From: a virus | Taxonomy: Duplodnaviria; Heunggongvirae; Uroviricota; Caudoviricetes | Length of the DNA: 64,000 nt | Virus record (IMG/VR): IMGVR_UViG_3300010365_001539 | Coordinates: 76 to 64,075 of that record | Direction: 5' to 3' (one strand) | Part shown: positions 2,989 to 53,549 of the stretch, one piece after another | Layout: each line of letters starts with the position of its first letter | How positions within the stretch are numbered: the stretch's first letter is position 1 | The notes under the pieces: model-generated | What the model saw: only the letters and a program-made list of their open reading frames with translations | What the model was told of the DNA's origin: nothing | Database searches by the model: none | Program-made: the position numbers and the translations under genes

Positions 2989-5046
2989 ATGAAAAATTTT
3001 CTTACATTACTTACAATTTTCTTAACATCAATTACATTTGGACAAGTTGACACTACTAAAGTAAACACTTTAGATGAAGTTACTGTTACAGCATCAAGAT
3101 TCAAATTAGAATCTGCTTCAGCAAAAACTATTAAAATGGATTCTGTTAAAACTTATCATGCACAAGAAACTCCTTATTTCTTCTCAACAACTCCATCAGT
3201 AGTTGCTCAGAGTGATAATGGTACTCCTTTTGGATATTCTTATTTTACTCTAAGAGGTATGGGTCAAAATCGTATCAACTATACATTAAATGGTGTTCCA
3301 TTAAATGATGGTGAAGATTTAGCAGTTTATACTTCTAATTATACTGACTTACTTAATAGTTTACGTTCTGTTCAAATCACCAGAGGTGCAGGTGTATCTG
3401 CAAATGGTTCAAGTTCTTATATTGGTTTAGTTAATATGGATTTAACAAGTCCATTTGATACTAAATCTGGTGAGTTTACATCTATGTTAGGTAGTTTTAA
3501 CTCAAGAAAGACATCTGTAAAAGTAAATACTGGTGTTAGTAAAAAAGGATTTGGTGCAACTTTTAGAGCATCAGAAACTTATACAGATGGATTTAGAGAC
3601 TTTTCATCTGGTAAAAGTCAATCTTTCTCAACATCTTTAGGATATAGAACAGAATATACATCAATTAGATTTAATGTTGTTTTTGGTAAAACTAAAAATG
3701 GTCAAGCATGGTTACCTGTCCCAGAAGGACTACCTGTTACAACAAATATCTTAGCAACTGCTTTTGGAATTAAACCACAATATGATGATTTTACAAGTGG
3801 TATCTATCAGTTACAAGTTGCTGGTAAATTCTCTGAACAAACTATATTCAATTTGAGTACTTACTTTACTCATGTTGATGGCAATTATGATATGCCTGCT
3901 TTTAGTGAAAACTATCCAGATAATACAAATAACTTAAAACTTAACTCAGCAAATTGGGGTGCATACTATAATGTTAAACACACAAGTAATGGTTTTACAA
4001 TTGAGCCAGGATTTACACTTAATTCATATTCAAGAAAACACACAGGAACAACAGATGGTGTATTTCAATATGATAATTTGGGAGAGAAATTTGATGCAAC
4101 TGCATTCACAAAAGCATCTTATAAATTAGGATTAGATTGGACAATTGAAGGTGACTACCAATTTAGAAGTACTTCTTTTACATATAAAAATGAATCTGAA
4201 AATTTTGGTGCTAAACTATATGAATATAACTTTCATAATTATTCCTTTGGATTGTCATACAGAGGTAATGATGTATTTAAACCTTATATAAGTTTTGGAA
4301 AATCTTCAAGAGAACCAAGTAGAACAAACTTACTATTTAAACTAGATAATACACCAAATAATTATGTAACTGATGGAACAACAATATCAACTGATAATAT
4401 ATCAAACCAGTCACAAATATCAAACACAAAATATGAAACTGTTAGAGATTTAGAAGTAGGTACTAAAATCAATTCTAAGTATATAAATGGATCTTTTAAT
4501 ACATACTATATGTATTTTAATAATGAAATTGTATCTATTGGTCAATTAAACTCAATGGGTATAGCATTAGGAACTAATGCTGATAAAAGTTATAGAGTAG
4601 GATTTGAAGGTGATTTAACATTAAAATTGAAAAAAATAGAAGTAGGAACAACATTTAATTTTTCCAAAAATAAAGTTTGGTTAGATGATGTAAAATCAGA
4701 ACCAGTATTGACACCTAACTTCATATCTAACTTATTTATAGACTATAATATTGGTAAGCTAAGCATTGGAACAAATTATAAATATGTTACACAATCATTT
4801 TTAGATAATAGTAATACATTCATCTGTCCAGAATATCACTTGGTAGATGCACATATTGGTTATAAATTCAAATCTGGTATATTGTTAAACCTATTTGTAA
4901 ATAATTTATTGAATAAAAATTGGACAACTGGTGGTAGTGTAGGATATCCTACAAATCCTGATGGTAGTAGTGCAGGAGATCCTTATAGACAATTTTACTA
5001 CACTGCAGGAACTAATACTTACTTAACACTAAACTATAAGTTCTAA
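2989..5046 (+). CDS. TonB-dependent receptor-like outer-membrane beta-barrel protein
   Basis: Signal peptide is followed by a TonB-box-like DEVTVTASR. Plug-domain-like motifs are present (FTLRGMGQNRINYTLNGVPLND, ITRGAGVSANGSSSYIGLVNM). The protein is long, beta-rich and aromatic-rich, and ends in a terminal Phe (…LNYKF), as TonB-dependent receptors do. Confidence 0.7.
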   Translation: MKNFLTLLTIFLTSITFGQVDTTKVNTLDEVTVTASRFKLESASAKTIKMDSVKTYHAQETPYFFSTTPSVVAQSDNGTPFGYSYFTLRGMGQNRINYTLNGVPLNDGEDLAVYTSNYTDLLNSLRSVQITRGAGVSANGSSSYIGLVNMDLTSPFDTKSGEFTSMLGSFNSRKTSVKVNTGVSKKGFGATFRASETYTDGFRDFSSGKSQSFSTSLGYRTEYTSIRFNVVFGKTKNGQAWLPVPEGLPVTTNILATAFGIKPQYDDFTSGIYQLQVAGKFSEQTIFNLSTYFTHVDGNYDMPAFSENYPDNTNNLKLNSANWGAYYNVKHTSNGFTIEPGFTLNSYSRKHTGTTDGVFQYDNLGEKFDATAFTKASYKLGLDWTIEGDYQFRSTSFTYKNESENFGAKLYEYNFHNYSFGLSYRGNDVFKPYISFGKSSREPSRTNLLFKLDNTPNNYVTDGTTISTDNISNQSQISNTKYETVRDLEVGTKINSKYINGSFNTYYMYFNNEIVSIGQLNSMGIALGTNADKSYRVGFEGDLTLKLKKIEVGTTFNFSKNKVWLDDVKSEPVLTPNFISNLFIDYNIGKLSIGTNYKYVTQSFLDNSNTFICPEYHLVDAHIGYKFKSGILLNLFVNNLLNKNWTTGGSVGYPTNPDGSSAGDPYRQFYYTAGTNTYLTLNYKF

Positions 5047-5441
5047 TGGACAAGAATAAGATTGTTAATAGTTTTGATATATTTGATAAATATGGTGATA
5101 TTGAAAAATTTCACCATTTATTAGAAAGTAAATTTGAAAAATATGAAAATACAATCACAGTAAATATGGGCTCATTCAAATACCCAAACTATGTTAAGAA
5201 AAAAGTTCCAGGTATTGCAGATAACTCAATCTATCTAATTGCAGAAGATGATTATTTTAGATTAATCTATGACAAAGGAATTGCAATGTTTGACTTAACA
5301 ATTAGAAAAGGACTATTAGTGAGTGAGTCAATAAAATTATCATCATCACTAACTAAAAATAAAGAAGATTTAACAAGAGTAATTGAATTATTAATTCACA
5401 AATTAAATGAACCAAGTAGAAATAATAGCAGTAGTCTTTAG
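5046..5441 (+). CDS. hypothetical protein
   Basis: 131-aa ORF with an ATG overlapping the upstream stop (TAATG). Confidence 0.45.
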   Translation: MDKNKIVNSFDIFDKYGDIEKFHHLLESKFEKYENTITVNMGSFKYPNYVKKKVPGIADNSIYLIAEDDYFRLIYDKGIAMFDLTIRKGLLVSESIKLSSSLTKNKEDLTRVIELLIHKLNEPSRNNSSSL

Positions 5442-5955
5442 TTTATTATCTGTAATCCTTGCAGTTAAAAACAACTTTCTTACATGGCCAGTAGGTATTG
5501 TAGGTGTCATATTCTATGGGATTTTGTTTTATCAAACAAAAACTTGGGGAAATATGTTCCTACAATTTCTCTTTATAGCTCAATCATTATATGGTTGGTA
5601 TAATTGGAAGAAAGATAAAGTAATTCTACCTATTGAGAAATTAGATAAACATGATGTAAATCTATTTGCAATAACAACTGGTTTACTATGTTTCTTTATA
5701 TCATTTGTACTTCTAATGACTGGTGATAAACAACCTTATCTTGATGGTATAACAACAGGATTAAGTATAGTTGGAACTTTATTATTAGCATTCAAAAAAA
5801 TAGATAATTGGTATTATTGGATAGCAGCAGATGTACTTTACATTTATTTATTTTATTCTCAGGGACTTTATTGGTCAACTGGAATATATTTTGTATTTTT
5901 GTTACTTGCAATATCAGGATTAAAAACATGGAATATGTCCTTAAAGAAGAGGTAA
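5407..5955 (+). CDS. pnuC: nicotinamide riboside transporter PnuC
   Basis: Multi-pass membrane protein with PnuC-like motifs (LYGWYNWKK, NWYYWIAADVLYIYLF) and the right size (182 aa). Confidence 0.8.
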   Translation: MNQVEIIAVVFSLLSVILAVKNNFLTWPVGIVGVIFYGILFYQTKTWGNMFLQFLFIAQSLYGWYNWKKDKVILPIEKLDKHDVNLFAITTGLLCFFISFVLLMTGDKQPYLDGITTGLSIVGTLLLAFKKIDNWYYWIAADVLYIYLFYSQGLYWSTGIYFVFLLLAISGLKTWNMSLKKR

Positions 5956-5990: not shown

Positions 5991-6836
5991 ATGTATATAA
6001 AAGAAAGTGAAATTGTTAAAATTACAATATCTGATATAAGTAAAACAAAGTGGGAGAAAAAAATAGGTAAAAAAATTGAAGGAAATGAGATTGAAGTACA
6101 CTGGACTCTTCTAAAAGGATCAACATTTAGAACCATATCTATAAATTTAATATGTGATGATTGTAATATAATTCATAAAAGACGTATAAGAGATTTAGAT
6201 GTAGAAAGTAATATACATTATTGTAATAAATGTTTTAATAAAGGTAAAAGAAATGGTAACTTTGGCAAACCTTGTTCAGAAAAATCTAAAGAGGGTACAA
6301 AAAAATTTATGGAGTTAAATGGTAATCCATTTACCTGGGAAAGTAGTAAAATAAAAATAAGAGAGGCAAAACCTTGGGAAAAAGCACATAGTGCAAATAC
6401 TGGAAGTAAAAGAAGTGAAGAGGTTAAAACTAAAATGAGTGAGTCTGCAATTCTTGCTTTTAAAGAAGGTCGTAGAAGTCCTGGTAGTGGTTGGGCAAGA
6501 ATACATACAAAAGAATATAAAGGATTGGACTATCAAAGTAAATATGAACTAAAGTTTATACAATATTTGGAATCTAAAGGTAAATTAGATATTATTGAAA
6601 AAGGACCAACAATTCCTTACTTTGATATGAATGGTAAAGAACATATGTATTTCAGTGATTTTAAAATAAAAAACACAAATATAATATTTGAAATAAAATC
6701 TTGGTATTATTGGGAAAAAAACAAAGAAATAAATATCATAAAAAAAGAAACCGCTTCAAAAATATATGATTTTTATTTAATAATGGACAACAACTTTTCA
6801 GACATTGATAAACTAATTGAAAATGAAAAAATATAA
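5991..6836 (+). CDS. homing-endonuclease-like protein with an N-terminal Cys cluster, three NUMOD3-like repeats and a possible C-terminal PD-(D/E)xK-like region
   Basis: Three repeats resemble the NUMOD3 DNA-binding motif: NGNFGKPCSEKSKEGTKKF, NGNPFTWESSKIKIREA and HSANTGSKRSEEVKTKMSES. A Cys cluster CDDCN...YCNKC is present. The C-terminal segment ...YFSDFKIKNTNIIFEIKSWYYW could be a D...EIK nuclease motif. The gene sits between pnuC and nadR. Confidence 0.5.
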   Translation: MYIKESEIVKITISDISKTKWEKKIGKKIEGNEIEVHWTLLKGSTFRTISINLICDDCNIIHKRRIRDLDVESNIHYCNKCFNKGKRNGNFGKPCSEKSKEGTKKFMELNGNPFTWESSKIKIREAKPWEKAHSANTGSKRSEEVKTKMSESAILAFKEGRRSPGSGWARIHTKEYKGLDYQSKYELKFIQYLESKGKLDIIEKGPTIPYFDMNGKEHMYFSDFKIKNTNIIFEIKSWYYWEKNKEINIIKKETASKIYDFYLIMDNNFSDIDKLIENEKI

Positions 6837-7833
6837 AAATTCACTTGCCTTAATGAAGGCATACCCACCTCACTTAGGTCACTTATACCTAATTGATACT
6901 GCTATAGAAAATAGTGAGCATACTCATGTAGTTATCTCACATAATAAATCTCAGACAATACCTGGTGAAATCAGATTTAATTGTTTAAAAGAAATCTATA
7001 AAGATAATCCTAATGTAACTGTATATAACTTTGATGATACAGGACTTCCTCAATATGATTATGAATGTAAAACTCTTGATGAATTCTACTCTTATTGGGT
7101 TCCAGAAATCTATAAATTAGTTGATGGATTAGATGCAGTATTTACATCTGAAAGTTATGGTGATGATTTTGCTAAATATCTTGGTGTAGAACACTTTTTA
7201 GTTGATAAGGAAAGAACTACATACCCTGTATCAGGAACTGCCATTAGAACCAATACTTTTGATAAATGGGACTATATACCTCAACAAATAAAACCATACT
7301 TTGTGAAAAGAATTGCCATAATGGGTCCAGAATCTGTTGGTAAATCTACAATGACCAGAGAACTGGCAAATTGGTATCAAACTAATTTTGTTGATGAATA
7401 TGGTAGAACAGTTTATGAAGCTAATGGTAATAAAGTAACTCATGAAGATTTTATAACAATTTCAGTTGGTAGACAATCATTAGAAGATTGGAATCTTAAA
7501 AAATCAAATAAATTATTATTCTGTGATACAGAGGATATAACAACATATCTTTTCTTAAAGATGTATTGTGATGATTGGACTAAAGAAGAAGACCAGTGGT
7601 TCTTAAAAACACTCTCAGAGAAGAAACCATATGATTTGTATATCTTATTGAAACCAGATTTTGAAGGAGTACAAGATGGTACAAGAAGTTTTCTTGAAAT
7701 AAGACAAGAACATTATGAAACTATTAGAGAAGAATTAGTATTAAGAGGTTGTAATTTCATAGAAGTTGGTGGAGATTGGAAAGAAAGATTTGAAGAGTGT
7801 AAAAGAAATATAGAATTAAATTTTAATATATAA
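6817..7833 (+). CDS. nadR: bifunctional NMN adenylyltransferase / ribosylnicotinamide kinase (NadR-like, without the HTH domain)
   Basis: The N-terminal nucleotidyltransferase motif YPPHLGHLYL is the (H/T)xGH motif. A Walker-A GPESVGKST lies in the C-terminal kinase half. Overall NadR architecture, immediately downstream of pnuC. Confidence 0.85.
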   Translation: MKMKKYKNSLALMKAYPPHLGHLYLIDTAIENSEHTHVVISHNKSQTIPGEIRFNCLKEIYKDNPNVTVYNFDDTGLPQYDYECKTLDEFYSYWVPEIYKLVDGLDAVFTSESYGDDFAKYLGVEHFLVDKERTTYPVSGTAIRTNTFDKWDYIPQQIKPYFVKRIAIMGPESVGKSTMTRELANWYQTNFVDEYGRTVYEANGNKVTHEDFITISVGRQSLEDWNLKKSNKLLFCDTEDITTYLFLKMYCDDWTKEEDQWFLKTLSEKKPYDLYILLKPDFEGVQDGTRSFLEIRQEHYETIREELVLRGCNFIEVGGDWKERFEECKRNIELNFNI

Positions 7834-9547: not shown

Positions 9548-9886
9548 ATGAAAAAAACACTATTACTATTACTACTTACATTTTATTCCTTTTCTCAAGA
9601 AGGAAAAAAAGAACCATTTGATTCAATCACAAATTGTGAATCAAGATACCTTTATTTTCCCAATTTACAAACATATTATGATTCAAAAACAGAAAAGTAT
9701 CTATATAAAGTTAATGGTGAAATTATAGAATCTGATGAAAGACCAAAAATTGGTTATTCAGTATATAATGGTTATCATGTACAAATAACTGACTATGATG
9801 GTGATGATATTTTTAATTGTTTAGAAATTCACAAGAAATTATATCCATATGTATCATCAAAATCAAGAAAAAGAAATGAGATATGA
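9548..9886 (+). CDS. secreted protein (signal peptide)
   Basis: N-terminal MKKTLLLLLLTFYSFSQE signal-peptide-like sequence. Confidence 0.5.
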   Translation: MKKTLLLLLLTFYSFSQEGKKEPFDSITNCESRYLYFPNLQTYYDSKTEKYLYKVNGEIIESDERPKIGYSVYNGYHVQITDYDGDDIFNCLEIHKKLYPYVSSKSRKRNEI

Positions 9887-10437
9887 TAAATATATTATCT
9901 ATTATAGTACCAATGGTAATAGGTGGGTTAATACTTATGTACATTATATTAGAGACTGTATCTATTTTTGAATTTGGTAGACAAAATGGTAAAGAAATTA
10001 CAAAATTCAAAAACAATATGAACTTTAAACAAAGTTTTATTAATTTTTATAAAGTAATTAAACTTATTAATATTAAAAATTTTGATGATTCATTTGAAAT
10101 TCATACAAGAATGAATGGTGGTTATATACTAAATTCTATTTCATATTATATGAAAATAATTGATGTAGATAATGTACTTTTAATAACTAAGAGTTCATAT
10201 CAGATTGGTTATACTTTATCAACATATAAAAAAATTGATAATGATTTTAAAGAGTATAAAATTAATATTACTGATTCACCAGCACTTCTTTATTGGTATA
10301 GATACTATAAATTAGATAAATTGATAAAGAAAAGCAAATGTAGATTGGTAGAACCTGATGATATAAACAAAATAATAAATGGACACTATACTGTTTATAA
10401 CAGAGATACAAAACTAAAAGAATTACTAAATGACTGA
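9883..10437 (+). CDS. hypothetical protein with an N-terminal TM helix
   Basis: 184-aa ORF with an ATGA overlap to the upstream gene. Confidence 0.45.
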   Translation: MINILSIIVPMVIGGLILMYIILETVSIFEFGRQNGKEITKFKNNMNFKQSFINFYKVIKLINIKNFDDSFEIHTRMNGGYILNSISYYMKIIDVDNVLLITKSSYQIGYTLSTYKKIDNDFKEYKINITDSPALLYWYRYYKLDKLIKKSKCRLVEPDDINKIINGHYTVYNRDTKLKELLND

Positions 10438-10897: not shown

Positions 10898-11339
10898 TAG
10901 AAATTATACATACACAGTTGATGAAATAATAGAATTTATTGAAATATATTTTGAAGTAAATCACTATAAGAGAAGAGGTGATGGTCTTATCACCTCTGAA
11001 TTTTCAATAACCAATACTGATATTGATATGGTATTACAATACTTTGATAAAGATATGAAAGTATTTGATATTTCAATGTACACATTTGCAGGTGGTTGGG
11101 AGACTAAAAGAAAATGTATGAAAATACAAATGGATGTTTGTGAAAAAGAAAACAAATATGATTATTGGTTACAAACTCCTGATATACCTTACATTGATAT
11201 GTATTCATTGAAAAAAGTAGGTGCTTTACCAGAGATTGCTAAGGAAGAAATCTTTGGTAAGATAAATGAATTCTTTAAACTAACTTGTAAAAAAGAACAA
11301 TTAAGAGATATAAAATTATTAGAATTGGGTATTAAGTAG
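10890..11339 (+). CDS. hypothetical protein
   Basis: 149-aa ORF. Confidence 0.45.
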   Translation: MISRNYTYTVDEIIEFIEIYFEVNHYKRRGDGLITSEFSITNTDIDMVLQYFDKDMKVFDISMYTFAGGWETKRKCMKIQMDVCEKENKYDYWLQTPDIPYIDMYSLKKVGALPEIAKEEIFGKINEFFKLTCKKEQLRDIKLLELGIK

Positions 11340-13866
11340 TGAATGTTACAGCACCACCAGGTCTTCTCCAGTCAGGTTCAGAGTAAACTCCAACAGTTGA
11401 CCAATAATTCAATCCTCTTGTATCATTAGATGTTGTTGTTTTAAAATCATCAATATTTATCCATCCTGCTGTTCCATCACAATCAACATAAAACTCTAAT
11501 ACACTATCGTGATTTATCACAGGTGTTGTATAAGTTAATATTTGCCAAGTACCATTTGCTGCATTTGTGGCACTAACTGCCATTGTCTCTGCTAAATTTC
11601 CCGCTAAAGGGTTAAATGCATACATCAATCTTGGTTGATTTCCATTATATGCAGCACCGTCACCAACAACTGATTTTCTAATAGCAATAGTAACATTACA
11701 GGTTTGCCCTGAACTAACAGCTATTCGAAAAGGATTTGAAAATGTTTTATTTGTTGTAACCTCAGGTTTTATTCTTATAGTTGGAAGACCATTATAAGTG
11801 ATTACATTATCATTCTGAATAAAACCATTACTTTGAAATTGTCGATATTCATTATTTACTCCACCATGTTTTAATGATGTTACTCCATTAAATCCATTCA
11901 CAGAAGTAAATGCAGCCGTAGAAGCATAAGATGCAGTTATTCCAAAAAATAAACAATTTGTTAATGTAGTTCCAACTTGACCACCTCTTATACATGAAGT
12001 TGAAAAAAGGCTATCTACACCATTAGGATTTTTCCCAAATGTACAATCTGAAAAATGTGTGTAATCATTAAACATTGCTGAATATCCAATAGCAGTTAGA
12101 AGTCCTGTTTTACCTGCCCAAAAGAAGCAATTATTAAACCAAAGTTTTCTAAAAGTACCACCAGAAGAAGAAGCAATTACATTTAAATTTGTTACATTTC
12201 CGTAAAAATAGCAATTTTCAAATTTTTCAAATACTGATCTATCTATGCTTGTAGTTGAGTTACCTGTTATCAATCTAATAGCAATTGAATTATTAAAAAA
12301 TATGTAATTACTCACCGAATATCCAGTAGAATTGGAAGTAAGATAAAGCGCACCATTTCCACCATTTGCATAAAATTTATTACCAGAAGTTCCTGTTAAG
12401 GGATTACTTTGTGAGCCAGCATTACTACAGGATGATATAACATTATTACTACCAATGCTTCCTCCAAAATGTGTAGCAAAACCGGCAAAACCAATTATCA
12501 AATTATTATCATTAATTGTTCCGGAAATTTCAGAGTAACTAAAGAAAATGTTATTAGATAAAGTGTATGTAGTAGTAAATAAACTAGCAAATAATGTACT
12601 TGTACCTGGATTGTTAATTTGCCAAAACGTGCATTGTTGTACATTAAACGTTCCAGTATAAGTTGATGTTCCACTGGCATGAGAATTTGCACCTAATTCA
12701 AAAAATTCTACATCAAAAAATGTAGTTATCCCTTGTAATCCTTGACGGAAACGAGTTTTGAATGTTGCATTTACACTACGTATTTTTATGTTTCGAGTAA
12801 GATTTACTAAGTCCGCTTGCATAAAGATTGCAGCATTACCATCATGAGCAAATGTTGTTGCAGGAATAGTCAATGTAGTTCCAGATGCATTTGAGCTTAA
12901 AACTCTTCGATCAATTTGAGTAGTTGTTCTTGTTGTGCTTGGAATAATGATAGTATCGTTTTGTCTCCATCCAGTAGCAACATTACTTGTTATGGTTGTT
13001 GCACCAACAGCAATATCTGCTGCTAAAAGAGCTCTGTGTAATATAGTAGTTGCATGCTTTGTTTCTAATGTACCATAATTTAAAATTCCAAATTGTAAAG
13101 CTGAGGCACAATTTATTTCTAGAACTGCAGTAGATGTTGCAGGTATTGGATTAGCAAAAGTCCCAATTGTAAATGTAGCTCCTCTACCAATTATTAAATC
13201 ACCATTTAATCTCAATCCATAATTTGTTGATGGTGCTATTCCATAATTAAAGGTTCCATTACTACCCACATAACAATTTCCATATTGTGTTGCAAGAGAA
13301 GTACTATTCATAGTAACTGTTACAATAGTATTAACTCCTGCTGCAGTATATTCACCAGAAGTTATCACTGTATCGGTTGCTACAGGTGCTTGTGTAGTTG
13401 TAGTAACAAGAGCTCGACTCCAGTTATTTGTAACAGCACTTCGATAAACAGTTACTGTACTATTTACTGAAGAAAATGCTCTAACTGAATATTGATTTCC
13501 TGCAATTAGTGTAACACTGCTATCAAATTTAAAATATGTCCAACCAATAAAACCTCCATTTAAAGTACCACCAGTATTGGGTAAATCTGAAATATTTACT
13601 ACAACATCCTTTACAACAGCACCTACTGTATTATTCCATAGCCTTACAGTCATAGTTCCAGAAGGAACTGCTATTCTTGATCCTAATTGTAATGCAACAC
13701 CTGCTACAGTTATAGCACCAGGAGTAAGTGCTACAGAAGCATTGGTTTGGGTTGTAGTCAGAGCTTGTTCACTAGTTCTATTATCTAAATAAGAAGTAGC
13801 TTCAACTAGCCCCCAAGTAGAAGCATCTAAGAAATTACCAGATTGTATTGATTGTAGTATTGCCAT
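11332..13866 (-). CDS. large virion fibre/adhesin-like structural protein (T/S/N/G-rich, probable beta-helix)
   Basis: 844-aa - strand ORF. Composition biased to T, S, N, G and A. Many short beta-strand-like repeats (e.g. FFNNSIAIRLITGNST). Adjacent to and co-oriented with the collagen-like fibre gene. Confidence 0.55.
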   Translation of the reverse strand: MAILQSIQSGNFLDASTWGLVEATSYLDNRTSEQALTTTQTNASVALTPGAITVAGVALQLGSRIAVPSGTMTVRLWNNTVGAVVKDVVVNISDLPNTGGTLNGGFIGWTYFKFDSSVTLIAGNQYSVRAFSSVNSTVTVYRSAVTNNWSRALVTTTTQAPVATDTVITSGEYTAAGVNTIVTVTMNSTSLATQYGNCYVGSNGTFNYGIAPSTNYGLRLNGDLIIGRGATFTIGTFANPIPATSTAVLEINCASALQFGILNYGTLETKHATTILHRALLAADIAVGATTITSNVATGWRQNDTIIIPSTTRTTTQIDRRVLSSNASGTTLTIPATTFAHDGNAAIFMQADLVNLTRNIKIRSVNATFKTRFRQGLQGITTFFDVEFFELGANSHASGTSTYTGTFNVQQCTFWQINNPGTSTLFASLFTTTYTLSNNIFFSYSEISGTINDNNLIIGFAGFATHFGGSIGSNNVISSCSNAGSQSNPLTGTSGNKFYANGGNGALYLTSNSTGYSVSNYIFFNNSIAIRLITGNSTTSIDRSVFEKFENCYFYGNVTNLNVIASSSGGTFRKLWFNNCFFWAGKTGLLTAIGYSAMFNDYTHFSDCTFGKNPNGVDSLFSTSCIRGGQVGTTLTNCLFFGITASYASTAAFTSVNGFNGVTSLKHGGVNNEYRQFQSNGFIQNDNVITYNGLPTIRIKPEVTTNKTFSNPFRIAVSSGQTCNVTIAIRKSVVGDGAAYNGNQPRLMYAFNPLAGNLAETMAVSATNAANGTWQILTYTTPVINHDSVLEFYVDCDGTAGWINIDDFKTTTSNDTRGLNYWSTVGVYSEPDWRRPGGAVTFTT

Positions 13867-29221: not shown

Positions 29222-29935
29222 ATGAAAAATTTAATTGAAGTCTTTGAAGATACTAAACAATATACTTTAGATAATAATCTAATTAATAGTAAAACCACTA
29301 AACACACATTCTTAGAAATTGAAACTGCACATGGACTACCAAAGTCTAATATTTCTGTTATAAACTCTGATACAGTATCTGCAGCACTTGATTTTACATT
29401 ACTTGGTAAAACTGCCTTACTTAATATGGCTTCTTATAAAAGACCTGGAGGTGGTGTTAGAAATGGCGCAAGAGCACAAGAAGAATGTTTATTCAGATGT
29501 TCTAATCTATCAGAAGTAATACCTACATCACACTACCTTTTAAAAGAAGATGAATGTCTTTATACAAGTGCAGGAGTTTTCTTTAAAGACTTCAACTATG
29601 ATTACATAACACCAACTGAAATAGATGTAATCACTATACCAGCCATTAACCTAAATGGATTTGAACTAACTAATATCAAACAATACATTAAGACTAATAA
29701 AGACAAAATTAGATTGATGTTATCATTAGCAATCAAAAATGAAGTAAAGAATATTATCTTAGGTGCTTGGGGTTGTGGAGTATTTAAAAACAATCCAGTT
29801 CAAATTGCTACTTTCTTTAAAGAAGTTTTAGATGAAGGTTACAATTCATACTTTGATAATGTTGTATTTGCAATTATCAATGACCACAATTCAGTAGATA
29901 ATAATTTAGAAATCTTTAAATCAATCTTACAATGA
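29222..29935 (+). CDS. macrodomain / bacterial PARG-like (TIGR02452-like) ADP-ribose-processing protein
   Basis: LNMASYKRPGGGVRNGARAQEECLFRCSNL and GAWGCGVFKNNP match the signature motifs of the TIGR02452 (DUF2263) macro/PARG-like family by recall. Confidence 0.65.
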   Translation: MKNLIEVFEDTKQYTLDNNLINSKTTKHTFLEIETAHGLPKSNISVINSDTVSAALDFTLLGKTALLNMASYKRPGGGVRNGARAQEECLFRCSNLSEVIPTSHYLLKEDECLYTSAGVFFKDFNYDYITPTEIDVITIPAINLNGFELTNIKQYIKTNKDKIRLMLSLAIKNEVKNIILGAWGCGVFKNNPVQIATFFKEVLDEGYNSYFDNVVFAIINDHNSVDNNLEIFKSILQ

Positions 29936-30897: not shown

Positions 30898-30964
30898 AAC
30901 AAAGATTAATAACTTGGTTATTAATCCATACAACATGTATTTGGTTAAGATGGATAAAAAATAA

Positions 30965-31065
30965 ACGGGAGTAGAACAGTGGTAGTTCAGCTTGCTAGGA
31001 AATATAATGTTGTAATGTTATATTTCTGACCAGGATGGTCGTAGGTTCGAGCCCTACCTCCCGTA
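30965..31065 (+). tRNA. atypical tRNA-like gene (101 nt) with a ~22-nt hairpin insertion in the anticodon-arm region; isotype unresolved
   Basis: Acceptor stem ACGGGAG/CTCCCGT is a perfect 7 bp. D-arm GAAC-AGTGGTA-GTTC. T-arm GTAGG-TTCGAGC-CCTAC is canonical. Between the D- and T-arms lie 51 nt, including the long hairpin GAAATATAA-N10-TTATATTTC, so there is no canonical 17-nt anticodon arm. Confidence 0.5.
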
Positions 31066-36679: not shown

Positions 36680-36910
36680 ATGAAAATCTCCCATATAATA
36701 TGTATGGGAGATTCAAGAACTAAATATTATGATGATTGGGATGATTACAGAGATTTCTGTGATTCATTGAAAATACAACCTAAAGATGATTTCTATACAC
36801 ATCAAAGAGAACTACTGAATGAATTAGGTTTTAAACACCTAAATGAATACTATGAAAATCTTAGAACTATTGAAGTAAGAGATAAGAAGATTAATCAAAT
36901 TCTGGATTAA
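36680..36910 (+). CDS. hypothetical protein (ends RDKKINQILD)
   Basis: 76-aa ORF. Confidence 0.45.
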   Translation: MKISHIICMGDSRTKYYDDWDDYRDFCDSLKIQPKDDFYTHQRELLNELGFKHLNEYYENLRTIEVRDKKINQILD

Positions 36911-37451
36911 TATCATCAAATGGTTCAACTAAATCAATATCTTCTTCCTCTATTAAGTGGTCAATTACTTGTCTTTGAATAGACTCCATTCTTTTTCTTG
37001 CTTTATTCAATGGGAAAAATTTAATATTATAAATTTCCTCTTCACCTAAAACTCTTTTCATAGTTTTATTTCTCAATACTAAACTATTAGGTTTTAAATA
37101 CTTTGCAAAATCCTCCCTTGTCTTATGATAAACAAAAACTTCTAACTCTTTAGTAATACCACTCTTTCTATAGTTTACTATAAATTTATAATCATAACGT
37201 CTGTCCAATTTAATACCAGCTTCTTCTTTAAGCTCTTTAAGTGCAGATGTTAAAGAGTTTCTACCTTCAATGTGTCCTTTAGGTAAAGACCATTTTACTC
37301 TTGAATGTTTGAACTTATCTGGTAATACTAATAGAATATTATCATCTACTAAAACTGCTACACCTGATAGTTTGTTTACTTTTTCCTGTTTGAATGCTTC
37401 AAATAATTTTAACCAAATCATAAAACTATATATTAAAGTTTGTTTATTCAA
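36891..37451 (-). CDS. Nudix hydrolase
   Basis: Nudix box GHIEGRNSLTSALKELKEEAGI (G-x5-E-x7-[RK]-E-x2-EE-x-G-I). Preceded by the beta-strand region VAVLVDDNILLVLP. Confidence 0.7.
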   Translation of the reverse strand: MNKQTLIYSFMIWLKLFEAFKQEKVNKLSGVAVLVDDNILLVLPDKFKHSRVKWSLPKGHIEGRNSLTSALKELKEEAGIKLDRRYDYKFIVNYRKSGITKELEVFVYHKTREDFAKYLKPNSLVLRNKTMKRVLGEEEIYNIKFFPLNKARKRMESIQRQVIDHLIEEEDIDLVEPFDDINPEFD

Positions 37452-42842: not shown

Positions 42843-42914
42843 GGCCCCATCGTCTATCGGTTAGGACGCCAGGTTTTCATCCTGGAAAGTCGGGTTCGAC
42901 TCCCGGTGGGGCTA
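42843..42914 (+). tRNA. tRNA-Glu (anticodon TTC)
   Basis: Cloverleaf: acceptor GGCCCCA/TGGGGCT, D-arm GTC-TATCGGTTAG-GAC, anticodon stem CCAGG/CCTGG with loop TTTTCAT, T-arm TCGGG-TTCGACT-CCCGG, discriminator A. TATATTTG lies about 75 nt upstream. Confidence 0.65.
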
Positions 42915-43024
42915 CTCCGTTTCTCACAACAGAAGAGTAAAACCACTTAATGATTAGTTGGTGAGGTAACAGCTCACAAAGGTTACTAAGTGCTGAGATA
43001 GGGGTTTCCACCTATTGTTACTCA

Positions 43025-44860: not shown

Positions 44861-45090
44861 AAACTGTTGATGGATATTTAGTTCCAGAAGAACATCTTGA
44901 AATAATTAGAAATACTTGTAAACTACAAAATGGTTTAGACTTTCATATAACTCTTATACAGAAGATGAAAACTGCATATGAAGTAGAAGGTACTTATAAT
45001 GGTATTGATCGATTATACACTGCTGAAATTGAATTTGATTATATTAAAACAGAAATTAGAAATAATAGAATAAATAAAATATTAGAATGA
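44857..45090 (+). CDS. hypothetical protein (ends IRNNRINKILE)
   Basis: 77-aa ORF. Confidence 0.45.
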   Translation: MKTVDGYLVPEEHLEIIRNTCKLQNGLDFHITLIQKMKTAYEVEGTYNGIDRLYTAEIEFDYIKTEIRNNRINKILE

Positions 45091-45509
45091 AAGTCATATT
45101 TACAGACATTGATGGTGTGTTAAATCCTCACTGGAAAACCAAGTGGAGTAAGTCTGCTATATCAATATACAATCAAATCTGTCAGGAATATGATTTAAAA
45201 CCTGTAATTAGTTCTACTTGGAGAATTAACCATACAAAAGAACAATTACAAAAGATATTTGATGAACAAGGTATTGAAGTGGAAATCTATGATTATACAC
45301 CACATCTTGACCAAAAAGACAGAGGATTAGAGATAAAAGAGTGGTTAAACAACAATAAAGTTGATAATTATGTTGTAATTGATGATATTGTACACAATAT
45401 TACACCTCATGTTGATAATGTAATTAAAGTTAGAAATTGGGTGGGTTTAACCACAGAAGAATATATTGAAATGAAAAAAATATTAGATAATGGCAATGAT
45501 GACAAATAG
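45087..45509 (+). CDS. HAD-superfamily phosphatase-like protein
   Basis: N-terminal motif I FTDIDGVLN (DxDG[TV]). A later hhhDD acidic motif (VVIDDIV). Confidence 0.55.
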   Translation: MKVIFTDIDGVLNPHWKTKWSKSAISIYNQICQEYDLKPVISSTWRINHTKEQLQKIFDEQGIEVEIYDYTPHLDQKDRGLEIKEWLNNNKVDNYVVIDDIVHNITPHVDNVIKVRNWVGLTTEEYIEMKKILDNGNDDK

Positions 45510-46182: not shown

Positions 46183-46539
46183 ATGAAAGATAAAATAGAA
46201 TTTGCAGAGTTTTTAGATATACAATCTAAATTAGAAATTAAAGTAGGTACAATTCAATCAGTAACTGATGTACCTAAATCAGACAAACTTATTAAATTAG
46301 AAATTGACTTTGGTGAAGACCAATTTAGAACTGTTGTAACAAATATTAAACCTTCATTAGGTGAAGATTATGTTGCTAATTTAACAGGCAAAACATTATT
46401 ATTTGTTACTAACTTAAAACCAGTTAAGATGATGGGTATTGAATCAACCGCAATGATTATGCCAGGATTCTATGATGATTGGGCAGGTAGACTATCACTA
46501 TCAACAATACATTCTAAACCAGGACTTTCAATACTATAA
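46183..46539 (+). CDS. tRNA-binding domain protein (Trbp111/CsaA/EMAP-like OB fold)
   Basis: FLDIQSKLEIKVGTIQSV...SDKLIKLEIDFGED...KTLLFVTNLKPVKMMGIESTAMIM matches the tRNA_bind (Myf) domain pattern found in Trbp111, CsaA and the MetRS C-terminus. Confidence 0.6.
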   Translation: MKDKIEFAEFLDIQSKLEIKVGTIQSVTDVPKSDKLIKLEIDFGEDQFRTVVTNIKPSLGEDYVANLTGKTLLFVTNLKPVKMMGIESTAMIMPGFYDDWAGRLSLSTIHSKPGLSIL

Positions 46540-48419: not shown

Positions 48420-49145
48420 ATGAAAATATTTATATTATATGAGGGTAACTTACCCTATTCAGAAAATGCAATGTATGCTGCACTTGGTTTTACCAAAATG
48501 GGTTATGAAGTTATTCCAATCTATGACCTAAGAGAACTTGATGATAATAAAGAACCAGAAGATATTGTCTTTGCAGGAATTGGAAATGTACTTTACAGAT
48601 TAGAAACTCAACTTGGTCTTTCTAAACCAGAAGAGATTTGTTATCCAGAAGAACTAAACTATTTACTTGGTAGAAAAGTTGAAGTAGCTACCTATGCTGA
48701 TATTGTTAATGATCATTCAGAACCTTCATTTATAAAACCTTATGGTACAACTAAATACTTTAATGGTTGTGTAGTTGAACACTTTAGAGATTTACCAGCA
48801 GCTGATTTAACTACAAAGATTTACAAAAGTGAATTGGTTAACTTTGTAACTGAATACAGATGTTTTATTTTAAGAGGTAAAATTATGGGAGCTAAACATT
48901 ATAAAGGTGACTTCTCTGTTGGGTTTGATAGAAAAGTTTTAGAAGAAGCTGTTGAGAAATATACATCTGCACCAATTGCTTATTCACTTGACTTAGGTGT
49001 TGATGAACAAGGTAGAACATTATTAGTTGAGTGTAATGATAGTCACTCAATGGGACACTATGGACTTAATCCATCTTTCTATGCAAGAATGATTTCTGCA
49101 AGATGGGCTCAAATGACAAATACAAAAGATTATTTGGAAGTATAA
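48420..49145 (+). CDS. ATP-grasp fold protein
   Basis: Size and pattern (central ...TEYRCFILRGKIMGAKHYKGD..., C-terminal ...LLVECNDSHSMGHYGL) are consistent with an ATP-grasp enzyme. Preceded by TATATTTG. Confidence 0.45.
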   Translation: MKIFILYEGNLPYSENAMYAALGFTKMGYEVIPIYDLRELDDNKEPEDIVFAGIGNVLYRLETQLGLSKPEEICYPEELNYLLGRKVEVATYADIVNDHSEPSFIKPYGTTKYFNGCVVEHFRDLPAADLTTKIYKSELVNFVTEYRCFILRGKIMGAKHYKGDFSVGFDRKVLEEAVEKYTSAPIAYSLDLGVDEQGRTLLVECNDSHSMGHYGLNPSFYARMISARWAQMTNTKDYLEV

Positions 49146-53466: not shown

Positions 53467-53549
53467 TATTGGGTAATACATAATGGCAAAATGGTATGTC
53501 ATCCTGTAATAAGGTTGTATTGTTGGAGGTTCGAATCCTTCCCCAATAA
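53467..53549 (+). tRNA. tRNA-like gene (83 nt); anticodon arm not cleanly resolvable by eye
   Basis: Acceptor stem TATTGGG/CCCAATA is a perfect 7 bp. T-arm GGAGG-TTCGAAT-CCTTC is canonical. The internal 51 nt have a GG-containing D-loop-like segment. One candidate anticodon loop, ATGTCAT (GTC, Asp), has a weak stem. A promoter-like TATATTTG lies about 12 nt upstream. Confidence 0.35.

Follow-up and report, generated by a model that had tools for sequence, protein, structure and literature searches.

A tRNA-family gene with an interrupted anticodon loop

We analysed a 64,000-nt stretch of a tailed-phage record from IMG/VR (IMGVR_UViG_3300010365_001539, positions 76 to 64,075), here called the window, and focused on a 101-nt element at positions 30965-31065 of its + strand. 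The locus proved to be a genuine tRNA-family gene with an interruption in its anticodon loop. On the + strand it is matched by the Rfam tRNA model (RF00005) with 42.5 bits (E = 1.1e-5; gathering threshold 29); the alignment runs end to end over the full model (positions 1-71) and places a 35-nt stretch opposite six model positions of the anticodon loop. In default mode ARAGORN missed the gene, its sole call in the window being an ordinary tRNA-Glu(UUC) at 42843-42915; with intron search (-i) it called the gene as tRNA-Arg(UCU) with a 27-nt intron. Both the Rfam and the intron-aware searches, which a sequence-only reading of the locus had suggested, were thus positive, and the tmRNA and group I intron models that it had also named gave no match. 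Scanned at gathering thresholds, the 64-kb window yields two Rfam matches, both tRNA, and none to tmRNA, group I intron, YrlA or any other family; ARAGORN called no tmRNA in the window either.

The gene is laid out as ACGGGAG-TA-GAAC-AGTGGTA-GTTC-A-GCTTG-CTA-(GGAAATATAATGT-TGTA-ATGTTATATTTCT)-GAC-CAGGA-TGGTC-GTAGG-TTCGAGC-CCTAC-CTCCCGT-A, with the inserted hairpin in brackets. Its parts are as follows.

30965-31065, + strand: whole tRNA-family gene, 101 nt, no encoded CCA (RF00005, ARAGORN -i, nine metagenome variants)
30965-30971, + strand: 5′ strand of the acceptor stem, ACGGGAG, which pairs with CTCCCGT at 31058-31064; discriminator A31065 (7/7 pairs in 9/9 variants)
30974-30988, + strand: D-arm, stem GAAC/GTTC, loop AGTGGTA with G18 and G19 (stem invariant)
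30990-30994, + strand: 5′ strand of the weak anticodon stem, GCTTG, which pairs with CAGGA at 31031-31035 (Rfam alignment)
30995-30997, + strand: CUA, 5′ side of a 3x3 internal loop; canonical positions 32-34 (C32, U33)
30998-31027, + strand: inserted hairpin, 13 pairs, loop UGUA (predicted fold; unique in the window)
30997-31025, + strand: candidate 29-nt intervening sequence under the CUG reading, proposed from an exhaustive excision scan
31028-31030, + strand: GAC, 3′ side of the internal loop; positions 36-38 under the CUG reading
31036-31040, + strand: 5-nt variable loop TGGTC (44-48), or 3′ strand of a competing hairpin at 31028-31040
31041-31057, + strand: T-arm GTAGG-TTCGAGC-CCTAC with a canonical T-loop (T54, T55, C56, R57, A58); 5/5 pairs in all variants

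The acceptor stem, D-arm and T-arm are exactly those described in the sequence-only reading, and the conserved residues U8, A14, G18, G19 and A21 and the T-psi-C-R-A loop can be read directly from the sequence. The enlarged spacing between D-stem and T-stem is likewise real, at 52 nt (about 23 in a normal tRNA) rather than the 51 (about 22) given before. A normal anticodon arm with a 5-bp stem and a 7-nt loop is not encoded; the two stem strands lie 36 nt apart. The conserved hairpin of about 29 nt within the anticodon loop prevents the gene, as encoded, from decoding. The whole RNA folds with a z-score of -4.0 and is more stable than 200 of 200 shuffled sequences. An intron-containing or permuted tRNA had been offered as one interpretation: the arms follow in normal order, which rules out permutation, and the intron-containing form is now the best supported, through the Rfam placement, the ARAGORN -i call and the 29-nt excision described below. 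A tmRNA was also ruled out, as no tmRNA features were found.

Competing folds between the D- and T-arms

In the canonical fold the weak stem GCUUG/CAGGA leads into the 3x3 internal loop CUA/GAC and the 13-bp hairpin, followed by a 5-nt variable loop. The hairpin had been described as 22 nt long; it measures 30 nt (30998-31027), with three G-U pairs among the 13. A second short hairpin noticed in the same reading, GACCA-GGA-UGGUC (31028-31040), does exist but competes with the canonical anticodon-stem pairing GCTTG/CAGGA. Under the nearest-neighbour model, the alternative fold with this hairpin as a variable arm is more stable by 1.8-3.5 kcal/mol in seven of the nine variants, and the canonical fold is preferred in variants L034 and L042.

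The stability of the alternative fold speaks for a class II tRNA, in which GACCA-GGA-TGGTC would form the variable arm; the 13-bp hairpin would then act as an anticodon arm of excessive length, with a tRNA-Tyr-like GUA tip. Consistent with this, 96% of the cells in the small hairpin are paired, and the tip of the long one carries U-G-U-A-A, as in the Tyr anticodon loop. However, such a molecule would have 9 unpaired nt between the D-stem and its anticodon arm, and the tip lacks a pair-closed 7-nt loop (the closure would be G.G, and the predicted loop is 4 nt). L034 breaks two of the five variable-arm pairs and favours the canonical fold, the covariation of positions 15 and 48 is that of an ordinary 5-nt variable loop, and from tRNA geometry the arm would be 8 pairs too long and out of reach of the decoding centre. 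A class II tRNA is in our view very improbable. The long-variable-arm reading in general, which had been proposed earlier and which the thermodynamics allow, is weakly disfavoured by the unpaired stretch, the broken pairs and the 15-48 covariation, and on the modelled structures we favour the canonical fold.

Conservation of the gene among metagenomic variants

Exact-protein look-ups and one metagenome pattern scan recovered variants from many digester and wastewater assemblies, which gave nine distinct metagenome-derived versions of the gene. Anaerobic-digester and wastewater samples in which this phage occurs include JGI 3300009670, 3300025713 and 3300010351, and SRR5007348. The insert is present in all nine, and ARAGORN -i predicts an intron in each. 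In the window the gene shares its strand with its neighbours; an open reading frame (ORF) of 83 aa ends 67 nt before it and one of 53 aa begins 13 nt after it. In all variants it keeps this spot between the two small ORFs, even where a neighbour is lost or truncated. In L043 (363-546) the downstream 53-aa ORF is absent and the tRNA gene is kept; in L041 (133-400) a truncated upstream ORF directly adjoins the tRNA gene, possibly through an assembly artefact. The set of neighbouring genes is fluid. An inverted repeat upstream of the gene was seen in the intergenic alignment; it is kept in all variants, and the next 20 nt vary:

30907-30925, + strand: inverted repeat TTAATAAC-TTG-GTTATTAA, just past the stop of the 83-aa ORF

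Column variability was computed over the eight variants with comparable flanks, L041 being excluded for its upstream deletion. Unless canonical tRNA numbers are meant, positions below are counted within the gene.

Upstream flank: 26/67 variable columns (39%)
tRNA body: 8/55 variable columns (p = 0.004 vs. flank)
Hairpin tip, positions 35-57: 1/23 variable columns (p = 0.0013 vs. flank)
Arm base, positions 26-34 and 58-71: 9/23 variable columns (p = 0.01, tip vs. arm base)

Across the nine variants all cells (100%) of the acceptor, D and T stems are paired. Two changing positions of the acceptor stem stay paired as G-U, the one change in the T-stem also gives a G-U pair, and the D-loop varies from 7 to 9 nt. 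The Levitt pair 15-48 is G-C in the window and A-U in the other eight variants, a single covariation event. Since the variants are about 96% alike, no compensatory double changes were found in the helices of the nine. The anticodon stem is less orderly: it consists of a constant G.A mismatch (27-43), C-G, U.G, U-A and G-C, and its third pair is lost in L034. In the internal loop U32′-A65′ is able to pair, and A33′.G64′ becomes A-U in L034; the GAC at 31028-31030 is GAU in L042 and UAG in L034. Changes private to the variant L034 number 6-7 and lie without exception at the arm base (positions 26, 31, 60, 64, 66 and 69), with body and tip untouched; the chance of seven changes clustering in 23 of the 101 positions is about 3e-5. 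Among these, G64U lengthens the long helix by the pair A33-U64. Taken together, the pattern of variability, the paired substitutions and the 15-48 covariation indicate an RNA with a tRNA-like three-dimensional core that is under selection.

The same data bear on whether the gene is a relic, that is, a former tRNA gene disabled by a palindromic insertion and now either non-functional or kept as a processing signal for RNase P and RNase Z (or RNase III). As a signal it would punctuate a polycistronic transcript 13-14 nt before the next start codon, and its place within a same-strand gene row, 67 nt past one stop and 13 nt ahead of the next ATG, would suit this role. RNase P and RNase Z require only the acceptor/T domain, which is among the conserved parts; the imperfect anticodon stem has drifted in L034, and hairpins are common in the window. 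Yet a relic leaves the near-invariant hairpin tip unexplained, as it does the conservation of the D-arm and the 15-48 covariation, neither of which punctuation needs. The hairpin is not repeated in the window, the gene survives deletion of either neighbour, and neutral drift would not cluster the L034 changes as observed. We consider this explanation improbable.

The inserted hairpin

The top of the hairpin (30999-31021, GAAATATAATGTTGTAATGTTAT) is invariant except for one wobble change. As the AT-rich window holds 60 hairpin-type inverted repeats (at least 10 nt, short loops), a hairpin of that size would be unremarkable by itself; it stands above chance because it lies inside a high-scoring tRNA and is conserved in nine distinct variants. 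Its sequence is single-copy in the window, and no target complementary to it was found there. Several candidate identities were tried and rejected. A repeated mobile element or dispersed repeat does not fit a sequence that is unique in the window and whose tip 20-mer gave only two chance matches in IMG/VR, both outside a tRNA context. A CsrA-type GGA hairpin was rejected since both GGA motifs vary (AGGA reads AAGA in eight variants, and CAGGA reads CAUGA in L034), and a resemblance to Cas12a repeats (UGUUGUA) was dismissed for its different stem geometry.

We also observed that positions 31001-31016 within the hairpin hold a Shine-Dalgarno-like AGGA (AAGA in other variants) followed after 6 nt by a two-codon mini-ORF, ATG TTG TAA, and that the same positions can be read as a tandem repeat, TAATGTTG-TAATGTTA. 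Both are probably coincidental. A UGUAAU hexamer occurs in the central loop of three odd tRNA-like genes, at 31004-31021 and 53503-53512 of the window and at about 2322-2332 of contig L015; it resembles the U33-G34-U35-A36-A37 core of the tRNA-Tyr anticodon loop. Its background frequency is 9.5e-4 per nt, and the recurrence was spotted after the fact.

The conservation of the tip raises the possibility, which we rate near-equal to the interrupted tRNA considered below, that the RNA is never spliced and never decodes. The acceptor/D/T scaffold would then serve for RNase P and 3′-end processing and for stability, an irregular helix of about 20 bp would replace the anticodon arm, and the working part would be the conserved tip (GAAAUAUAAUGUUGUAAUGUUAU, with UGUAAU). 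A host or phage protein, for instance an anticodon-loop-directed nuclease or modification enzyme, could bind the tip or be decoyed by it; the decoy or processing element of the sequence-only reading thus stays a live rival in this form. The contrast between tip and arm base (p = 0.01) or flank (p = 0.001) argues for such a role. Positions 35-46 are invariant even where their partners at 58-60 mutate to mismatches, and so the constraint appears to be on sequence rather than on pairing. The L034 changes also fit, as none falls in body or tip and G64U lengthens the helix. Furthermore, there is no recognised bacterial or phage pathway for removing a 29-nt insert that is neither of the bulge-helix-bulge (BHB) type nor a ribozyme, and UGUAAU(A) is found in the central loops of the 53467-53549 gene and the L015 element too. 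On the other side, the contrast between tip and base comes mostly from L034 and shrinks to 1/23 vs. 4/23 when this variant is left out, and the UGUAAU recurrence was noticed post hoc. No partner protein or target has been identified, the window holds no complementary target, and elsewhere the tip 20-mer has only the two chance matches. In addition, the residues flanking the hairpin are those of a canonical loop (C32, U33 ... A37), which would be superfluous for a pure scaffold.

Excision scan, anticodon and isotype

Our scan covered all contiguous excisions after which an anticodon arm of 17 nt and a variable loop of 4-5 nt remain. Removal of 29 nt gives, at several junctions and in 8 of the 9 variants, a stem with four of five pairs and a 7-nt loop in which position 33 is U and position 37 a purine. 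One of these junctions restores the loop CUCUGAC with anticodon CUG, identical in the eight variants, and puts the variable sites 34, 43, 58 and 59 all inside the insert; the exon junction would read ...GCUUGCU/CUGACCAGGA... (GCUUGCU/CUGACCAGG), with a boundary ambiguous by 1-2 nt. A further 29-nt solution gives the loop CUAUGAC with anticodon AUG. Alternative excisions are 31001-31029, at the canonical 37/38 position, and the 27-nt ARAGORN intron at 30997-31023, whose UCU solution requires a shifted stem with a C.C mismatch. The 37/38 junction gives CUAGGAC or CUAAGAC, that is, anticodon AGG in the window and AAG in the other variants, and is implausible for a decoding tRNA. For L034 no acceptable solution was obtained, and ARAGORN reads it as Lys(CUU). 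As a control, a published tRNA-Tyr of the Lak megaphages returned a perfect 5/5 stem and the loop CUGUAAA, so the scan works and the present gene is less clean.

In a BLAST search of 50,697 phage records the spliced query was about equally close to Met, Arg, Asn and Gln tRNAs, and an isotype is therefore not assignable. A scan of GTDB genomes for tRNAs with the same D-stem strand and T-arm was uninformative: its matches were to GTAGTTCA, found at positions 7-14 of Arg, Asn, Gln, Trp and Met tRNAs that are unrelated. BLAST of the region against the same phage records gave no near match, only generic T-arm matches. Exact and gapped scans for both halves of the gene found nothing in IMG/VR and only two more insert-bearing copies in JGI metagenomes. 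Codon use in the window is 19 CAG vs. 159 CAA, and AGA accounts for 162 of 186 Arg codons.

An interrupted tRNA as the favoured reading

We tentatively favour an interrupted tRNA from which the hairpin would be removed by proteins, the best junction giving the anticodon CUG. Several results point this way. Rfam and ARAGORN place the extra sequence as an insert in the anticodon loop; the tRNA fold appears to be under selection, judged by body variability, paired substitutions and the 15-48 covariation; and the gene is kept despite loss of neighbours, including in L043 and L041. Excision of 29 nt restores a loop with U33, A37 and a constant CUG in eight of nine variants. There is a precedent in the Lak phages, as well as inserts of about 46-52 nt in related huge-phage contigs (both below), and the window encodes an RNA-repair-type HAD domain and a tRNA-binding-domain protein. 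By analogy, we prefer to class the hairpin with the "enigmatic" tRNA introns of Lak megaphages, as an intervening sequence of broadly that type.

From these features we infer a possible route. The gene would be transcribed together with its + strand neighbours, its ends trimmed by RNase P and a 3′ nuclease, and CCA added. Proteins would then cut out the hairpin, a double-strand-specific or hairpin-specific endonuclease being our suggestion, and an RNA-repair-type ligase would join the halves into a 72-nt tRNA with stem GCUUG/CAGGA, loop C-U-C-U-G-A-C and anticodon CUG for the rare CAG codon, or UCU in the ARAGORN alternative.

A number of observations weigh against an interrupted tRNA. The restored anticodon stem is weak, with one G.A mismatch and one G-U pair. 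Three anticodons are possible, the one at the 37/38 junction differs between the window and the other variants, and the changes in L034 either abolish all solutions with at least four stem pairs or turn the anticodon into CUU. No part of the gene is better conserved than the hairpin tip, an unusual finding if the intron is dispensable. The gene contains no BHB motif and no ribozyme, and among the window ORFs of at least 85 aa with Pfam hits (64 kb of phage) none is an RNA ligase, polynucleotide kinase, RNase III or splicing endonuclease (EndA/Sen). A CAG-reading tRNA would serve only 11% of the Gln codons in the window, and the tRNA body has no isotype assignment. Finally, gapped pattern scans of IMG/VR and JGI metagenomes (gap 5-35 nt) found no insert-free allele, and for this reason the junction is proposed rather than demonstrated.

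Genomic setting and other RNA elements

The window has a GC content of 27.8%, and the standard genetic code gives 87% coding, so stop-codon recoding was rejected. Its genes include a collagen-like tail fibre, a GIY-YIG/NUMOD3 homing endonuclease, a microbial PARG, an SPFH protein, a TonB-dependent receptor and NAD-salvage genes. Homologues of PARG and SPFH occur on IMG/VR viral contigs of up to 518 kb, and from this and the gene content the window is best taken as part of a very large tailed phage of about 28% GC. The host is probably Gram-negative and perhaps of Bacteroidota type. The tRNA gene is not syntenic in the many huge-phage contigs that carry PARG/SPFH homologues, and the more distant homologues of the 53-aa downstream ORF have no adjacent tRNA.

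About 14-15 kb downstream of the tRNA gene, beyond tRNA-Glu, lie a gene for a HAD phosphatase domain of "Swiss-army-knife" RNA repair proteins (45087-45509, E = 1e-23) and one for a stand-alone tRNA-binding domain protein (46183-46539, E = 2e-17). An R2K-clade ATP-grasp enzyme (48420-49145) belongs to the same tRNA/RNA-related cluster downstream of tRNA-Glu. Cell-like metabolic genes are found at 299-892, 2989-5046, 5407-5955, 6823-7833, 29222-29935 and 36891-37421; they encode the C-terminal part of a malate:quinone oxidoreductase (E = 1e-91), a TonB-dependent receptor, a PnuC nicotinamide mononucleotide transporter, a NadR-like adenylyltransferase/kinase, the microbial PARG and a NUDIX hydrolase. 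This set looks like an NAD/ADP-ribose toolkit; alternatively, the first kilobases of the window may be host DNA.

A second non-canonical tRNA-like gene at 53467-53549 (+ strand) was missed by default ARAGORN and by the Rfam threshold, scoring 26.6 bits with a model built here and 15.5 bits with the Rfam tRNA model. It has a perfect 7-bp acceptor stem (TATTGGG/CCCAATA), a textbook T-arm (GGAGG-TTCGAAT-CCTTC) and an irregular D/anticodon region with CC-UGUAAUAA-GG, and is identical in two other assemblies; upstream of it, TATATTTG fits the Bacteroidota -7 promoter consensus, TAnnTTTG. ARAGORN in default mode thus missed two of the three tRNA-type genes in the window, so default bacterial tRNA finders under-count phage tRNA-like genes.

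Other RNA elements were seen on further contigs. L020 carries a GOLLD-like large RNA at 11514-11918 (93 bits; Rfam threshold 150) that adjoins tRNA-Leu, and at 9840-9908 a match to a hepatitis delta virus-like ribozyme (37 bits; threshold 44), which starts right after a 197-nt stretch that ARAGORN reads as tRNA-Phe with a 109-nt intron. On L094, a more distant relative, positions 2723-2814 form a 92-nt tRNA-like element with a long variable arm and the loop UUGUGAA (20.9 bits, model built here). The related phage contig L001 has at 11321-11392 an ARAGORN call for a tRNA with anticodon CTA ("Pyl", amber-suppressor-like); the window itself uses the standard code.

Comparison with known systems

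The BHB introns of archaeal and eukaryotic tRNAs, removed by EndA/Sen and joined by RtcB or Trl1, are typically 14-60 nt long and share with the present insert its shortness, its site in the anticodon loop, the pairing between anticodon and insert and the lack of a ribozyme. In contrast, here a stem and a 3x3 internal loop stand beside a continuous 13-bp helix, where a BHB would have two 3-nt bulges 4 bp apart, and this uninterrupted helix rules out a BHB intron. The anticodon at 37/38 is also not conserved, the host is bacterial, and no splicing endonuclease gene was seen in the window. Bacteria are not known to have protein-based tRNA splicing.

Bacterial group I introns (in tRNA-Leu UAA, fMet, Arg and Ile, and in Asn and Asp tRNAs of Patescibacteria; PMC13011429) likewise interrupt the anticodon loop in a bacterial-type setting, but they measure at least about 200 nt and have a catalytic core (P3-P8). 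The insert of about 29 nt is too short and matches no Rfam model, which rules out a group I or other self-splicing intron.

In engineered tRNA scaffold RNAs and in the tRNA-like modules of YrlA, a Y-RNA-like RNA of bacteria and phages, an acceptor/D/T core carries another helix in place of, or as an extension to, the anticodon arm. Such cores are processed and stable in bacteria. The scaffolds, however, are a laboratory design with no natural family, and YrlA is permuted, has its two ends on the anticodon side and binds Ro; the window has no YrlA match at the gathering threshold.

The closest parallel is given by the Lak megaphages (about 540 kb, 26% GC, Prevotella hosts), whose tRNAs contain "enigmatic", "highly conserved" introns in the anticodon loop (Devoto et al. 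2019, PMC6784885). These inserts of 79-93 nt lie next to the anticodon, some with a nested tRNA-like sequence, insert-free alleles exist, and the inserts came to light when oversized pseudo-tRNAs were rerun in eukaryotic mode (PMC6784885). Crisci et al. 2021 take their existence as settled (PMC8346664), and according to a 2026 survey the tRNAs of 262 alternatively coded jumbo phage genomes contain intronic sequences (PMC13037316). The literature searched for short introns or extended anticodon arms in phage tRNAs yielded only the Lak and these later jumbo-phage reports, and none demonstrates how or whether the inserts are removed. The present gene resembles those of Lak in its setting, a very large phage of about 26-28% GC, and in being an otherwise canonical tRNA gene with an anticodon-loop insert that is near-identical across samples (here 1 of 23 apex columns varies among nine variants) and missed by standard bacterial finders. 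It differs in that the insert is a plain hairpin of 27-30 nt, whereas the Lak inserts are longer and some include a nested tRNA-like T-arm. Lak exons give a perfect 5-bp stem and a textbook loop, and here there is a mismatch and an ambiguous anticodon; Lak has insert-free alleles, and none was found here; Lak uses an alternative genetic code, and the window the standard one.

Related huge-phage contigs hold further elements of this sort, a few hundred nt downstream of the SPFH gene, which match the tRNA model over 118-121 nt with 31.7-46.9 bits and have anticodon-loop inserts of about 46-52 nt:

L018, 7307-7427
L019, 7308-7428
L020, 7289-7408
L015, 2256-2373
L023, 3596-3713

All of them lack the canonical U33; the L020 type has C at 33 and no clean excision solution.

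It is conceivable, if rather doubtful, that huge phages make protein-dependent use of tRNA genes interrupted by short hairpins, either through a splicing that is neither BHB- nor ribozyme-based, in which the hairpin would direct cleavage and an RNA-repair ligase would then seal the ends, or through natural tRNA-scaffolded decoy or ligand RNAs in phage-host conflict. In either form, if true, the mechanism would be one undescribed for bacteria or their viruses: a spliced RNA would mean a new RNA-processing route in the bacterial world, and an unspliced one a natural tRNA scaffold displaying another RNA element. With a 29-nt plain hairpin in a 101-nt gene and natural variants in hand, the case is compact and could be synthesised for direct tests of processing, aminoacylation and binding. 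In setting and behaviour the gene groups with the interrupted tRNAs of huge phages, from which its shorter hairpin insert, imperfect stem and standard code set it apart.

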